A stretch of DNA of 63,884 bases, counting the filler, from a bacterium (GTDB taxonomy: Bacteria > UBA9089 > CG2-30-40-21 > SBAY01), in the NCBI GenBank assembly GCA_040757115.1. It is 10 parts of 10 records of this genome, joined end to end, with 100 filler letters (N's around TTAATTAATTAA, not from the genome) between each part and the next. Parts side by side here need not be neighbours in the genome. Positions count along the whole stretch, not along the records: positions 35,657 to 39,897 come from JBFLYA010000296.1; 9 more parts are not named here. One strand, written 5' to 3'. Position 1 is the stretch's first letter, and every line of letters starts with the position of its first letter. Positions 26,838 through 61,270 of the stretch are shown here, in pieces. Both the position numbers and the translations under genes were made by a program. The notes under the pieces are model-generated. The model did not search any database. It saw only the letters and a list, made by a program, of their open reading frames with translations, and was not told the DNA's origin.

Positions 26838-26937
26838 NNNNNNNNNNNNNNNNNNNNNNNNNNNNNNNNNNNNNNNNNNNNTTAATTAATTAANNNNNNN
26901 NNNNNNNNNNNNNNNNNNNNNNNNNNNNNNNNNNNNN
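26838..26937. other. Artificial contig linker (N-run with TTAATTAATTAA); further copies at 31208-31307, 35557-35656, 39898-39997, 44233-44332, 48510-48609, 52756-52855, 56997-57096, 61171-61270
   Basis: Nine identical 100-nt spacers, each with a six-frame stop cassette. Confidence 0.98.
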
Positions 26938-31205: not shown

Positions 31206-31375
31206 GCNNNNNNNNNNNNNNNNNNNNNNNNNNNNNNNNNNNNNNNNNNNNTTAATTAATTAANNNNNNNNNNNNNNNNNNNNNNNNNNNNNNNNNNNNN
31301 NNNNNNNCTCCGCTCTCCTGCAATCTCTAATCTCCCGTTTATAGTTTATCCTTGTTTACCTCATCTTGTTACCCA

Positions 31376-35471: not shown

Positions 35472-35771
35472 GTCGGGTAATTGGAGGACAGTATGGAGTC
35501 TGTCAACAATAGTTATTTACAATACTGTAAACAATATCTATGGTAAATATCTAATANNNNNNNNNNNNNNNNNNNNNNNNNNNNNNNNNNNNNNNNNNNN
35601 TTAATTAATTAANNNNNNNNNNNNNNNNNNNNNNNNNNNNNNNNNNNNNNNNNNNNTAATAATTAATTTTTTAATTTTATTTTCAACCCCCACCCCCCAA
35701 TCTTGGGGGCTTTAATAAGGAATTAGGATTGTGGCATTCAAAATGACCAACAATATATATTATACGAGGAC

Positions 35772-35866
35772 GATGAAAATAGTGGTAGGAGATAAGCGTG
35801 AGGAGTGGTGTTTTCTTTACTTTCTACTCTCTACTTTCTACTCTCTACTTCCTATTTTCAGGAGAA
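35772..35866. repeat. Dispersed element with CTACTCT heptamers ending TTTCAGGAGAA; related copy at 55301-55398
   Basis: Both copies share TTTCTTTACTTTCTACT..CTACT..CTACTTCC...TTTCAGGAGAA. Confidence 0.75.
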
Positions 35867-35921
35867 ATGGTTACAATAATCACTGGGGCTGGTATCCTCC
35901 TCATCCCGCTGTAAACTTATT

Positions 35922-38267
35922 TTATGTCACCTTTTTAATGACTATGGCTGAGTTTTTTCCACCAAATCCAAATGAGTTTGAAAAAGCGACATTAACTACC
36001 TTTTCTCGTCCTTTATTTGGCACATAATCCAGGTCACAAGTTGGGTCAGGGGTTTCATAGTTGATTGTTGGTGGAATAAAACTTTTATCAATAGCTAAGG
36101 CACAGACGATTAATTCTACTGCACCGGTAGCACCAATAGAGTGCCCAAGCATAGATTTCGTTGAACTGATTGGAATATGATAGGCATAATCACCAAAAGC
36201 CTGTTTGATGACTAATGTTTCCGTGCGGTCACCCAGTGGTGTAGAGCTACCATGGGGATTGATATAATTTACCTCTTGCGGGGATATATTGGCTGATTGT
36301 AGGGCTAATTTAAAAGCACGAGCCGCCTCTTTACCATCAGGTGCCGGGGCACACATATGATAGGCATCATTTGTTGTGGCAAAACTAACAATTTCGGCAT
36401 AGATATGAGCCCCGCGAGTTTTGGCATGTTCAATCTCTTCTAAAATAACCACGCCTGCTCCTTCACCTATGACAAATCCATCCCGATTGGCATCAAAAGG
36501 TCTTGATGCTTTTTGTGGCTCATCATTTCTAAGTGATAAGGCATTCATGGCATAAAATGAGGTTATGACCACCGGTCGTATAGGTGCCTCTGCACCACCA
36601 GCCACTACAACATCCACCTCTCCATTACGAATAGCATTAAATCCATAACCAATGGCATCTGTGCCTGCTGGACAACCGCTGGCAATAGTTAGACTTGCAC
36701 CTTTTAACCCGAGTTCTAAGGAAACCATAGAAGAAAGTGCCCCGGAGAAGGCAATTATAGATAAAAACGGACTTATCTTCTCGGGTCCTTCTTGAATGAA
36801 ACTTATTATCTGTTCTTCAGCAAAGGCTAATCCACCCACACCTGCACCGATAATGACATCAATTCGCTCTTTATCTTCTTTAGTTAAATCTATTTGGGCA
36901 TCTTCGAGGGCAAGTTTAGCCGCACCAACAGCAAATTGTGTTTCACGGTCAGTCCGCTTTAAACTCTTTTTATCCATATATTTTGCAGGGTCAAAATCCT
37001 TTATCTCAGCGGCTATCTTTACCGGTACTGATGAAGCATCAAATAAGGTTATACGACTTATCCCCGGAGTTCCTTGACAAAGGGCAGTCCAGAAATCTTT
37101 CTTTCCAAAACCAATAGGTGTAATCACGCCAATGCCTGTAATAACACATCTGCGCGGAATTCTTATTGCCTCCTTCTCGACTATGGAAAAAGGAATGATT
37201 TTCTCACCACCCCTACTTTTTGCCGTATAAAGTGCCTGTTTTACCTTATCTATTAATTCCTTTGAGTTAGAAATTTTATCCCCAAAAGTCGCAATTCCAC
37301 AACTAATTGTCAAAAGAATATTTAATCCCTCTTTCTGGCAAAAGTGGTGATTATTAATTTCTGTCTGAATCCGTTGGGCTAATATCTTAGCGTTATCTTC
37401 TTTTGTCTCGGTTAAAATAAGGATAAACTCATCCTCCTCAGCCCTGATTAACACATCTTCTTTTCGAGTATAACTTAACAAAATCTCTGCTGTCTCCTTT
37501 AGAATAGAATCACCTGCGGCGTAGCCATATAGGTCATTGAGTCTTCTAAAGTTATCAATATTAAATATAATCACGGATAGAGGTCTATTCTTCCGGGTTG
37601 CCAGACTTATCTCCTCATCTAATCTTTCATTCAAATAAATGCGATTATGTAAACCAGTTAATTCATCCACATGGATTAACTTTTCCTTTTCTTTCAACAA
37701 ATTGGTTATACTTTCTGCCTTTTCAGTAAGGAGATAATGTTCAATAACGGATTCTTTTAATGGTTCAATTAACATCCGTATCATTCTACCAAAGGTATTA
37801 AATTCAGTTTGTGAAATTTTTTTAATCTTTTTAAGGGCATCTATTGCCTTTTGTGGATTGATGTTTAACTCCTGGAGGTAATTGATATATTTGGCTTCAT
37901 CTATATCATCAGACAGGATTCTGCCACCAACAATTGCGGCAACAGGTTTTTGATAGATGATAATTGGGAGGGCAAAATTAGTTAAGCCAGTATGACATTT
38001 AAAGATAGTCCATCCCTCTCTTAATGCCCCTTCCCAGAAACAGCCTTCAAGGTAAGAAAAGATACATTTCTGATAGCCGGGTTTTGAATCTAAGATAACC
38101 TGGCAAAAAGGGGAAGTATATTGTCTTTCAAGGGTATTTTTACCATCTACACCGATAATCTGAATTCCCGAGCCAATGGTTTTCTCACAAATATCTTGCA
38201 CCTTTTCCCATTGATTAAACAGGTTTAATAATTTCCATAAATTGGTTTGTAAATCTTCTTGTTCCAT
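35922..38267 (-). CDS. Fusion: PocR-type ligand-binding domain + degenerate GGDEF domain + FabF/KS-alpha-like beta-ketoacyl-ACP synthase
   Basis: N-terminal PocR-like FCQVI..C..FKCHTGLTNFALPI; DELTGLHNR...RKEDVLIRAEEDEF; then RRCVITGIGVITPIG, ASGCPAGTDAIG, RDGFVIGEGAG, HGSST, KSMLGHS and SNSFGFGGKN. Confidence 0.9.
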   Translation of the reverse strand: MEQEDLQTNLWKLLNLFNQWEKVQDICEKTIGSGIQIIGVDGKNTLERQYTSPFCQVILDSKPGYQKCIFSYLEGCFWEGALREGWTIFKCHTGLTNFALPIIIYQKPVAAIVGGRILSDDIDEAKYINYLQELNINPQKAIDALKKIKKISQTEFNTFGRMIRMLIEPLKESVIEHYLLTEKAESITNLLKEKEKLIHVDELTGLHNRIYLNERLDEEISLATRKNRPLSVIIFNIDNFRRLNDLYGYAAGDSILKETAEILLSYTRKEDVLIRAEEDEFILILTETKEDNAKILAQRIQTEINNHHFCQKEGLNILLTISCGIATFGDKISNSKELIDKVKQALYTAKSRGGEKIIPFSIVEKEAIRIPRRCVITGIGVITPIGFGKKDFWTALCQGTPGISRITLFDASSVPVKIAAEIKDFDPAKYMDKKSLKRTDRETQFAVGAAKLALEDAQIDLTKEDKERIDVIIGAGVGGLAFAEEQIISFIQEGPEKISPFLSIIAFSGALSSMVSLELGLKGASLTIASGCPAGTDAIGYGFNAIRNGEVDVVVAGGAEAPIRPVVITSFYAMNALSLRNDEPQKASRPFDANRDGFVIGEGAGVVILEEIEHAKTRGAHIYAEIVSFATTNDAYHMCAPAPDGKEAARAFKLALQSANISPQEVNYINPHGSSTPLGDRTETLVIKQAFGDYAYHIPISSTKSMLGHSIGATGAVELIVCALAIDKSFIPPTINYETPDPTCDLDYVPNKGREKVVNVAFSNSFGFGGKNSAIVIKKVT

Positions 38268-38331
38268 TTTTAGCTACACTTCCCTTGTAAGTATTCAGCC
38301 CCCAAGGCACTAAAGTCTGCTCCCTTATTCA

Positions 38332-38982
38332 TTAAACCTTTTTATCTGATAGCCTTCTAATCTCAGTTAGAAATGATTTTACTACATCCGGAGCATTAGC
38401 CCTTAGACTCTGGTCAAGAATATCAAGTTTATAAACCCCATCTATATAGGTTTTAGTTATTGCCTCAACCCTATCCTGAATCAAGTCAAATTTACCCTTA
38501 ATAATATCGCTACACTTAAACATAGATTCTTTGTCGTATTTAAGGACAGTTGCCAGGTCAAATATATCTCTTACTTTAAGGCTTTCGGGTCTGTAAAACA
38601 TCTTTTTAAGCACAATCTCAACAGGAACATCTATTCTTACTGCAATTCCATCAATATCCATTGCTAAAGGCTTAATACCTGTTAGATTGGGAGCGACTAT
38701 AAAGTCTATTTCACTCTCTTTGAACTTTAACTTAAGGTAATTAGACTGTTCATCATAATCAGAGACATATTTTTCCACTTTATCGTTAAGTCTTGGTGTC
38801 AAAAGGGTAATAAACTGGGCGTTGTTAAAAAAGATATCAATATCTCTGCTTAACCTATGTTTGTAATGAAGCATTAAAGCCGTTCCCCCGCCCAATGTCC
38901 ACTCAGAAATGCTTGCAGATTGAAGAAAAAACTCTGCAAGTTTTAATATCTCCTTCCAGTCTTTTGGTTCTTCAATCAACAT
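38332..38982 (-). CDS. AbiEii/AbiGii-family nucleotidyltransferase (type IV TA toxin-like)
   Basis: WTLGGGTALMLHYKHRLSRDIDIF and KK..YR...LKVRDIFD. Likely start MLIEEP at 38982. Confidence 0.85.
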   Translation of the reverse strand: MLIEEPKDWKEILKLAEFFLQSASISEWTLGGGTALMLHYKHRLSRDIDIFFNNAQFITLLTPRLNDKVEKYVSDYDEQSNYLKLKFKESEIDFIVAPNLTGIKPLAMDIDGIAVRIDVPVEIVLKKMFYRPESLKVRDIFDLATVLKYDKESMFKCSDIIKGKFDLIQDRVEAITKTYIDGVYKLDILDQSLRANAPDVVKSFLTEIRRLSDKKV

Positions 38983-39271
38983 TAAATATTTCCTCAAGAT
39001 TCCTATTAGTATATAGCGGTTGGATGTATTTAAAATAATAAGACTTAAGTATTTCCATAGAAATTCCATTCTGGTTACAGAATCTACAGACTACCGAAGG
39101 AGATACTTCAGTAAAAAAACTGTAGATGTGCTGGTCATATTTAGTCGGGAATTCACACTTTTTCAGTAGTTCAACCAGAGTTGATTCTCTAAGAGAATAT
39201 TTCATCGGTGCATTTATGGTTGTAAAAACACTCACCATCTTTTCCATCCTTGAATGGTTATCTGGCTTCAA
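38972..39271 (-). CDS. Small hypothetical protein, putative antitoxin partner
   Basis: Overlaps both neighbours (by 11 and 14 nt); TTINAP motif and FFTEVSP. Confidence 0.65.
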   Translation of the reverse strand: MKPDNHSRMEKMVSVFTTINAPMKYSLRESTLVELLKKCEFPTKYDQHIYSFFTEVSPSVVCRFCNQNGISMEILKSYYFKYIQPLYTNRNLEEIFNVD

Positions 39272-39698
39272 CCCTATTTTTAATTGCCTTCAGTGTCTCA
39301 TCCGCCATCTTATAAACAATTTTAGCCACGATGAATTTACCAATAATAGGTCCGATTAGAGGTATTTTTTTATACTCAAAATTATGGATTAAGGTAATTT
39401 TAGTGGTGTTACCTACTTCTTCAAATAACCATTCTATCTTCATTCCGCGAATAGGACCTGCAAGTTGTTCAGCGGTGATAGATTTATTTTTCTCTAATTT
39501 AACTAAAGACCGCCAGGTGATTTCTTTACCGCCAGCCATACCCAACCGCTCTATTATCATATTATCGGCATTTTTCTCAATAATCTTTACCTTTTTGTAG
39601 GTCGGGATAAATTCTGGGTAGCGTTCAAAATCCGTAGCTATTTCAAAAACTTTATCAATATTTTTATTGATAATGATGGTATTTTTTGTCTGAATCAT
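39258..39698 (-). CDS. SRPBCC/START-fold polyketide cyclase/aromatase-like protein
   Basis: VFEIATDFERYPEFIPTYKKV and GPIRGMKIEWLF; AGGAG RBS before the ATG at 39698. Confidence 0.85.
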   Translation of the reverse strand: MIQTKNTIIINKNIDKVFEIATDFERYPEFIPTYKKVKIIEKNADNMIIERLGMAGGKEITWRSLVKLEKNKSITAEQLAGPIRGMKIEWLFEEVGNTTKITLIHNFEYKKIPLIGPIIGKFIVAKIVYKMADETLKAIKNRVEAR

Positions 39699-39999
39699 AA
39701 AAATCTCACTCCTATTGAACTGCAATAACGATGTGTCGTTTATCAGGAATAGATATAGATACTTCTTTCTCCTGAAAATAGCGAATTAGTGAATTAGAGA
39801 TTAGCGAATTAGTATAGTATCCACAGACTCGTATCCTCTGGTTTAGAACACATATTCCCCCTTAATAAAGGGGGTTAGGGGGTTGTCCTTCTCCCATNNN
39901 NNNNNNNNNNNNNNNNNNNNNNNNNNNNNNNNNNNNNNNNNTTAATTAATTAANNNNNNNNNNNNNNNNNNNNNNNNNNNNNNNNNNNNNNNNNNNNAA

Positions 40000-44232: not shown

Positions 44233-44332
44233 NNNNNNNNNNNNNNNNNNNNNNNNNNNNNNNNNNNNNNNNNNNNTTAATTAATTAANNNNNNNNNNNN
44301 NNNNNNNNNNNNNNNNNNNNNNNNNNNNNNNN

Positions 44333-48312: not shown

Positions 48313-48844
48313 TTTAATCTCAATTGCTCCTGTGACTTTACTCCAAGGAAATATCTCTAGAAGGGGCTTTCCATCTTTATACCCTAAATTCCCGAAAAGT
48401 TATAACTATGGGGAGAGATTTGATACATCGATGTCAAAAGAATTATATATATCTTTAACCTTTTTTGAGATTTCATTGATTATATTTAGTCCATTACCAA
48501 ATTGCGTAANNNNNNNNNNNNNNNNNNNNNNNNNNNNNNNNNNNNNNNNNNNNTTAATTAATTAANNNNNNNNNNNNNNNNNNNNNNNNNNNNNNNNNNN
48601 NNNNNNNNNATTTTTGATTTTTAATATTTAATATTTGATTTTTTTTATTGCCTTACAAGTATTTTTGCATTTTGCTTTGTCCTTTTGATTTGGACATTTT
48701 GATATTTGCATTAAACTCCTTGTGGAATATTTCGCATCGGTATCCTATTGTTTAACAAAGAGTTACTTTTCAAATCAACGCAATTTGGAACATGCTCTGT
48801 GGTTAGTTTTTGACAATACCGTTAAATAAAAGGGGGATGAAAAA

Positions 48845-52755: not shown

Positions 52756-52855
52756 NNNNNNNNNNNNNNNNNNNNNNNNNNNNNNNNNNNNNNNNNNNNT
52801 TAATTAATTAANNNNNNNNNNNNNNNNNNNNNNNNNNNNNNNNNNNNNNNNNNNN

Positions 52856-56996: not shown

Positions 56997-57096
56997 NNNN
57001 NNNNNNNNNNNNNNNNNNNNNNNNNNNNNNNNNNNNNNNNTTAATTAATTAANNNNNNNNNNNNNNNNNNNNNNNNNNNNNNNNNNNNNNNNNNNN

Positions 57097-61170: not shown

Positions 61171-61270
61171 NNNNNNNNNNNNNNNNNNNNNNNNNNNNNN
61201 NNNNNNNNNNNNNNTTAATTAATTAANNNNNNNNNNNNNNNNNNNNNNNNNNNNNNNNNNNNNNNNNNNN

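Follow-up and report, generated by a model that had tools for sequence, protein, structure and literature searches.

A FabF-type ketosynthase fused to a PocR sensor and a degenerate GGDEF domain in an uncultured groundwater bacterium: a candidate signal-gated accessory condensing enzyme

Degenerate GGDEF domains are known to act as receptors of cyclic di-GMP (c-di-GMP), which PelD, PopA and SgmT bind at an RxxD I-site, and the cellulose synthase BcsA is an enzyme fused to a PilZ domain. To our knowledge, type II fatty-acid condensing enzymes are regarded as free-standing and as controlled mainly by transcription and by feedback from acyl-ACP (acyl carrier protein). PocR domains are predicted to sense small derivatives of hydrocarbons (PMC13725321, PMC13602510), and the first of these papers already describes PocR joined to GGDEF by a coiled-coil linker. 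Here we describe an uninterrupted open reading frame (ORF) of 781 aa at 35922-38267 on the minus strand of a 63,884-nt stretch of DNA (the window) from an uncultured groundwater bacterium (assembly GCA_040757115.1), in which a PocR sensory domain, a signalling helix, a degenerate GGDEF domain and a FabF-type ketosynthase (KS) follow one another. The best explanation of this protein, to which we give a probability of roughly 55%, is an accessory and competent KS of the FabF family with an N-terminal signal-input module, which would gate it in response to c-di-GMP and a ligand. Regulation of the KS by the N-terminal module as such appears likely. The sequence comparisons below establish the fusion itself, the state of its residues, its conservation, its accessory standing and its operon partners; from these we infer that c-di-GMP is bound, what PocR senses, which way the regulation runs and what kind of product is made.

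Like PelD, PopA and SgmT, the fusion has a dead A-site and retains RxxD and an equivalent of PleD R390 at canonical spacing. Unlike them, it has a fatty-acid condensing enzyme as its output in cis, its I-site reads RxxE in 11 of the 29 full-length family members in which residues were counted, and its binding of c-di-GMP is a prediction. In the PocR-GGDEF cyclase GGDEF_MRE50 of Methanocella arvoryzae (PMC13725321), too, a long helical linker connects PocR and GGDEF, whereas the GGDEF domain of the fusion has lost its catalytic residues and precedes a KS in place of an HD-GYP domain. With FabF (KAS II) of E. coli and T. thermophilus (1J3N) the protein shares a full-length KS match, the catalytic triad, the Lys and the gating Phe, but it adds a PocR-GGDEF module of 370 residues, lies outside an acpP/fab cluster, is a second copy and belongs to a separate clade.

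Four Pfam domains were identified above gathering scores, and the frame is open throughout, in agreement with the earlier note on this DNA, which had proposed a single 781-aa ORF joining PocR, GGDEF and ketosynthase. The domains and residues of the fusion given below all lie on the minus strand. PocR (PF10114) covers residues 18-168 (37764-38216; E-value 2.6e-24, 86.2 bits against a gathering score of 23.9) and GGDEF residues 199-355 (37203-37673; E-value 8.7e-41). Within the KS domain, which extends over residues 372-781 (35925-37154), ketoacyl-synt matches residues 373-615 (E-value 1.6e-47) and Ketoacyl-synt_C residues 623-738 (E-value 1.8e-36). In AlphaFold2 (AF2) models a helix of 45 residues of the signalling-helix or coiled-coil type (residues 153-197, 37677-37811) joins PocR to GGDEF.

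The fusion is real and not an assembly artefact. Misassembly or a sequencing frameshift could have joined a PocR-GGDEF gene to fabF, as the gene lies on a short contig (35657-39897, 4241 nt) of a metagenome-assembled genome (MAG), yet a search of 5.8 billion protein clusters yielded about 30 full-length proteins (750-812 aa, 38-64% identity) with the same four Pfam domains from several sources, with Candidatus Desantisbacteria, Candidatus Poribacteria and Actinomycetota among the names given. The nearest genome (G001) encodes an ortholog of 787 aa with 96% amino acid identity; at the nucleotide level it matches 35929-38269 and 38339-39781 at 97% identity and without indels. Among 24 genomes of the phylum of G001, 13 have frames of 771-829 aa that contain the whole N-terminal module, and two more (G004 and G006) have PocR-only frames of 624 and 680 aa; these frames also include a fabF match of 532-569 bits. 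The same fusion, which the earlier note had suggested looking for in related MAGs, is thus present as a single frame in this phylum and in others.

A Logan contig of run X1, a groundwater metagenome, matches 35900-38300 with 0 differences and no indels (3940 nt, depth 317); X1 is probably the source sample, and this match is therefore not independent support. Run X2, from the same study, gave five fragments with substitutions only, leaving 36386-36628, 37136-37241 and 38087-38300 uncovered. At the junction (37100-37260), for which the earlier note had asked for read support, the X1 contig passes through without differences, and no X2 fragment bridges 37136-37241. Together, the continuous frames, the copy in G001 and the X1 contig make an artificial junction highly improbable. 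A scan with the single protein P0026 returned 15 loci, of which L042 and L043 encode the fusion and the others ordinary KS genes, and about 8 of the best 150 matches of the N-terminal module to protein representatives span the whole module, the others being ordinary GGDEF proteins.

The KS part is a complete enzyme of the FabF type. Residues 372-778 score 555.4 bits over positions 1-407 of the NCBIfam fabF equivalog model TIGR03150 (cut-off 493.75), higher than for the polyketide KS model NF005490, and residues 372-780 align over the full length of solved FabF structures, with T. thermophilus 1J3N as the best match (E-value 4.9e-129). C532 (36672-36674), H672 (36252-36254), H709 (36141-36143), K704 (36156-36158) and F768 align with C163, H303, H340, K335 and F400 of E. 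coli FabF, and the Cys-His-His triad noted earlier is therefore present. C532, K704 and H709 are kept in all 29 full-length members and H672 in 28, and the equivalents of E. coli C163, H303, H340, K335, F400 and T307 in 46-47 of the 47 fused KS rows of the tree discussed below. These intact residues suggest that the domain is catalytically competent. The fused clade consistently differs from E. coli FabF by N140G, M141A, A162G and T305S, with clade-specific changes next to the active-site Cys. We compared 14 operon loci, one each from this contig (represented solely by its three genes at 35657-39897), from G001 and from 12 other genomes of the phylum; a type II polyketide synthase is not indicated by them, as each operon has one KS with no adjacent chain length factor (CLF) and no ACP motif was found in any of the 14.

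The score above the equivalog cut-off and the name beta-ketoacyl-ACP synthase II given to relatives by NCBI and JGI would also suit a housekeeping FabF with an N-terminal extension, in which case the fusion would regulate bulk fatty-acid synthesis. We consider this very unlikely. G001 has nine FabF-like genes, and the top scorer (652.8 bits) has a 78-aa acpP directly before it and rnc after it, at a site other than that of the fusion; a standalone FabF encoded with acpP/fab genes would have about 410 aa and not 781. Standalone fabF genes with 587-656 bits were identified in 23 of the 24 genomes of the phylum, the lone exception being 78% complete, and in all 15 genomes with a fused KS. In a maximum-likelihood tree of 119 KS domains (LG+G4), one clade of 57 rows contains all 30 PocR-GGDEF, 14 PocR-only and 3 N-truncated rows (47 fused) together with 9 standalone KS rows and a fusion of KS with an ICMT-type methyltransferase, while the housekeeping fabF of G001 belongs to a separate clade of 47 rows. 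The support of the first clade is 95 by SH-aLRT (Shimodaira-Hasegawa-like approximate likelihood ratio test), the only support measure used; the rooting is not secure, and the sampling is biased because the rows are the best matches of one search. Five partial, double-KS or plant proteins (P0029, P0032, P0036, P0056 and P0067) were excluded beforehand.

The KS of the fusion is thus an accessory paralogue and not the main elongating KS. Since it occurs beside a standalone acpP-fabF, signalling would be wired into a side pathway and not into bulk lipid synthesis. The earlier proposal of a direct connection between second-messenger signalling and chain elongation stands, at most, for this side pathway. 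Other KS-like genes in G001 occur in groups: contig C556 has four within about 10 kb and contig C113 has two in tandem (loci L004-L006), all below the fabF cut-off.

The GGDEF domain was aligned residue by residue with PleD, numbered as in the literature. The first metal-binding Asp, D327, is replaced by N236 (37560-37562) within FNIDNF, GGEEF by EEDEF (residues 277-281, 37425-37439) and R446 by Gly, while the equivalents of N335, D344 and K442 are kept. An active cyclase would have GG(D/E)EF and both metal-binding acidic residues, and the domain is dead in this respect, including the Asp-to-Asn change that the earlier note had read from the sequence. The I-site reads RKED (R268-D271, 37455-37466), at the same distance of five residues before the A-site that RAID has in PleD, and R390 corresponds to R299. 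This protein therefore has the residues of an I-site receptor, and the earlier description of an intact RxxD motif at canonical spacing is correct for it; the nearest clade also has the full canonical I-site.

The loss of catalysis extends to the whole family. None of the 29 full-length members has GG[DE]EF, the first metal Asp is present in two, and the guanine contacts equivalent to N335 and D344 are found in 10 and 19 members, respectively. Neither cyclase activity nor GTP sensing is, therefore, a trait of the family, and we rejected a family-wide role of the dead GGDEF domain as a GTP sensor because of these guanine-contact counts. At the I-site, Arg is found at position 1 in 26/29 members, an acidic residue at position 4 in 25/29 and the R390 equivalent in 25/29. 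Our baseline was the set of 142 ordinary GGDEF proteins with the greatest similarity to this domain, 134 of which have [GAS]G[DE]EF. Of these 134 active-looking relatives, 79 have RxxD, 3 have RxxE and 49 have no Arg; Arg occupies position 1 in 85. Despite the loss of catalysis, the fusion family has retained the Arg and acidic pair no less well than active cyclases have, which suggests selection on the I-site-like surface. Binding of c-di-GMP by the I-site of this protein is plausible, and we somewhat favor it.

Fusion of a c-di-GMP receptor domain to a KS has occurred by another route as well. PilZ-KS proteins P0048 and P0055 carry RxxxR and NxSxxG, the canonical c-di-GMP-binding motifs, and they form a separate KS lineage in the tree; receptor domains of this kind have therefore been joined to FabF-type KS at least twice. 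Like BcsA and these two proteins, the fusion has a c-di-GMP receptor-type domain in cis to a biosynthetic enzyme, and the PilZ-KS proteins follow the same logic on a FabF-type KS. The receptor domain of the fusion differs from theirs in being a GGDEF domain with an I-site and not PilZ.

Operons around the fusion point to both lipid modification and c-di-GMP turnover. Neighbor families were defined by BLAST with at least 70% mutual coverage and were named by Pfam on representatives. SRPBCC/Polyketide_cyc proteins (family B, 17 proteins) were found in 11 of the 14 loci, PF04199 'Putative cyclase' (family C) in 10, an ICMT/PEMT-type membrane methyltransferase (family D, 12 proteins) in 9, a seven-transmembrane (7TM) protein of the architecture 7TM(HisKA_7TM)-GAF-HD-GYP (family E, 7 proteins) in 5 and FadL/TodX (family F) in 4. 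The commonest order is C-B-fusion-B-(B)-D-E, frequently with overlapping stop and start codons. A compact example is locus L040 of genome G002, with genes for the cyclase-like protein, the fusion, two SRPBCC proteins, ICMT and two HD-GYP proteins. On the contig of the fusion, the operon partner of family B is a protein of 155 aa at 39258-39725 on the minus strand. Any HD_5 protein with HD and GYP motifs was present in 8/14 loci, its gene often overlapping the upstream one, and four of the six loci without HD-GYP end within a few kb. With 5-21 HD-GYP genes per genome, one would lie next to the fusion by chance with a likelihood of roughly 5-10% at each locus, although the genomes, being related, do not count as independent. 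The closest standalone paralogue of the KS in G001 (59% identity to the KS part) lies in a cluster with the gene order FadL, KS, methyltransferase, 7TM histidine kinases, REC, GAF-HD-GYP.

Gene fusions tie the operon partners together: ICMT-KS, represented by P0045, links the ICMT partner to KS, and Cyclase-SRPBCC and PocR-GGDEF-SRPBCC fusions were also detected. The PF04199 Cyclase-SRPBCC protein, of 480 aa, is encoded in genome G015 (L031 6482-7924, minus strand). Genome G021 encodes a 383-aa chimera of PocR, partial GGDEF and partial SRPBCC (L035 9208-10359, plus strand) directly upstream of the KS fusion.

In phenolic-lipid operons, the condensing enzyme SrsA makes the lipids that SrsB, an ICMT-domain O-methyltransferase, methylates (PMC13730376). 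Pairing of a condensing enzyme with an ICMT-family methyltransferase is shared by the loci studied here (9/14 loci and P0045), which differ from the srs operons described there in having a FabF-type KS and not a type III polyketide synthase, and in their SRPBCC and PF04199 partners; the ICMT gene is not on the window's contig. The Rpf/DSF (diffusible signal factor) system, with its fatty-acid signal and the HD-GYP regulator RpfG (PMC3749722), likewise links a lipid-pathway enzyme genetically to an HD-GYP c-di-GMP phosphodiesterase. Here, in contrast to that system as described, no RpfF-type enoyl-CoA hydratase or RpfC was seen, and the HD-GYP protein has its own 7TM-GAF sensor.

Two loci from a distant lineage show which of these partners persist. 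In L042 (4350-13184), from a MAG named 'Actinobacteria bacterium', the fusion is 41% identical to the protein studied here and is followed by a HEAT-repeat protein of about 200 aa, 7TM-GAF-HD-GYP, two GAF-GGDEF proteins and GAF-GAF-GGDEF; in L043, on a partial contig that carries the label Paceibacterota, the fusion is again followed by the HEAT protein and then 7TM-GAF-HD-GYP. Because the lipid-tailoring genes are absent in this distant lineage, the partner that persists over the deepest split is c-di-GMP machinery with a 7TM-GAF sensor.

Intact-motif HD-GYP genes beside the fusion, in 8/14 loci of the phylum and in both distant loci, also raise the possibility that the co-operonic 7TM-GAF-HD-GYP protein docks on the dead GGDEF domain, which would tether the KS to a membrane sensor complex. 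There is a precedent for such contacts, as the HD-GYP protein RpfG binds GGDEF proteins through GYP and DxD motifs, independently of diguanylate cyclase (DGC) activity (PMC3749722). Two observations make docking unlikely here. PocR-KS variants without GGDEF retain HD-GYP neighbors, and if the DxD in question is the one at the metal site, only 2/29 members keep the first Asp of it.

The PocR domain is the more constant part of the N-terminal module. C55, C68, Y72 and C91 are invariant in all 29 members and H92 is kept in 25 (residues 55-92, 37992-38105). This pattern of Cys, Tyr and His may represent a metal or redox site. Such a site would fall outside the usual description of PocR as a 'hydrocarbon sensor'. 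The AF2 model of residues 1-200 has a mean predicted local distance difference test score (pLDDT) of 88.5 and a predicted template modelling score (pTM) of 0.82; a Foldseek search with the PocR model against the PDB gave only weak matches to GAF, PAS and IclR-ligand domains, none at E<=0.001.

The constancy of PocR brings up another possibility, in which PocR alone would gate the KS and the dead GGDEF domain, left over from an ancestral PocR-GGDEF cyclase, would bind no nucleotide and serve as a structural spacer or dimerization transducer. PocR is the universal partner of the fused KS, PocR-GGDEF modules with a coiled coil are a known type of sensor (PMC13725321), and no ligand residue of GGDEF is invariant, those in contact with GTP being poorly kept as given above. 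On the other hand, the Arg and acidic residues of the I-site persist in most members despite complete loss of the catalytic motif, HD-GYP and GGDEF genes recur in the operons of two distant lineages, and PilZ-KS fusions arose independently. We regard gating by PocR alone as rather doubtful.

Several findings weigh against gating by c-di-GMP together with a ligand, and some of them favor PocR alone. Strict RxxD is found in only 14/29 members, with RxxE in 11/29, P0026 included, and the I-site lost in 4/29. The GGDEF domain is dispensable in evolution and has been lost repeatedly: PocR-KS without GGDEF is common, with 14 members inside the clade, and one of them, P0009, is the nearest relative of this KS (74% identity over the KS domain); the genomes G004 and G006 also encode this form. 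Both PocR-KS loci examined (L038 and L039) retain HD-GYP neighbors, so the HD-GYP link cannot run solely via the I-site. The distant lineage lacks the SRPBCC, ICMT and cyclase partners, and the fusion's own contig shows only the SRPBCC gene and an AbiEii-like gene, the rest of the operon being deduced from G001. Related genomes are also not independent samples. The full-length AF2 model, with a pLDDT of 86.1, has a pTM of 0.57 and so does not define the arrangement of the domains relative to one another. The earlier claim that the KS is gated by c-di-GMP and a small ligand is, in summary of its fate here, consistent with the deep conservation of the fusion, the recurrence of HD-GYP in its operons and the PilZ-KS fusions with their c-di-GMP motifs, and is weakened by the RxxD count, by P0009 and the 13 other PocR-KS proteins without GGDEF and by the two such loci that keep HD-GYP.

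If gating by c-di-GMP and a ligand is correct, a KS dimer would condense malonyl-ACP with an acyl chain. The housekeeping AcpP would be the carrier, because the operon is without an ACP gene. The KS would feed a specialized membrane-lipid or lipid-signal pathway with a product that is possibly methylated or cyclized; by analogy with the phenolic lipids of SrsA and SrsB (PMC13730376), the SRPBCC proteins could handle this product and the ICMT-type enzyme could methylate it. PocR would sense a small and probably hydrophobic ligand, the dead GGDEF domain would bind c-di-GMP at its I-site (R268, D271, R299), and the two would gate the KS post-translationally through the helical linker. The membrane-bound 7TM-GAF-HD-GYP protein could set the local level of c-di-GMP, sense the lipid product, or both, and a response to the lipid product would close a feedback loop. 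More tentatively, the parts could form a self-contained circuit in which 7TM-GAF-HD-GYP reads the lipid product or the state of the membrane, c-di-GMP switches the KS via the I-site and PocR adds a metabolite input; we regard this as possible, though not the likelier outcome.

Placement of a sensor or second-messenger receptor domain in cis to an enzyme is known, and a KS as the output domain seems, from our literature search, not to have been reported before. In searches of titles and the beginnings of abstracts, we found no report of a KS fused to GGDEF, PocR or PilZ, which agrees with the earlier note's knowing no described example of the architecture, although supplementary architecture tables such as those of PMC13725321 might list the fusion. 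The same title- and abstract-level searches gave no report of a FabF-type KS fused to an ICMT methyltransferase as in P0045. Gating of the kind proposed here would mean post-translational control of a chain-elongation step by a signal, and lipid synthesis would join the processes that c-di-GMP reaches directly. With the circuit, if true, allosteric action of c-di-GMP on the elongation of fatty-acid or polyketide chains would be seen for the first time. The conserved operon of SRPBCC, cyclase-like, ICMT, FadL and HD-GYP genes points to a putative new lipid product in several little-studied candidate phyla.

The window is made up of ten MAG contigs, arranged by size, with nine artificial 100-nt linkers, N44-TTAATTAATTAA-N44, between them at 26838-26937, 31208-31307, 35557-35656, 39898-39997, 44233-44332, 48510-48609, 52756-52855, 56997-57096 and 61171-61270. 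The third and fourth of these bound the contig of the fusion, which begins at 35657 and stops at 39897. Gene adjacency across the linkers is artificial because they join separate contigs, and we therefore rejected FliR, FlhB and FapA as flagellar neighbors of the fusion, since the linkers place them on other contigs. The true neighbors on the 4241-nt contig are the SRPBCC/Polyketide_cyc gene and a gene for an AbiEii-like nucleotidyltransferase (38332-39069, minus strand), which lies between the SRPBCC gene and the fusion and occupies the same place in G001. The latter is probably a toxin-antitoxin-type insert in the KS operon. A 99-aa ORF without a Pfam match overlaps this gene, both lying within 38332-39271 on the minus strand. 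Toxin-antitoxin-like inserts of this kind occur within the KS operon in family f1, as genome G010 has HEPN, nucleotidyltransferase (NTase) and AbiEii genes at the equivalent place (L030 3540-5710). Elsewhere in the window, a giant ORF of 8245 aa (2029-26766, minus strand) fills most of the first contig.

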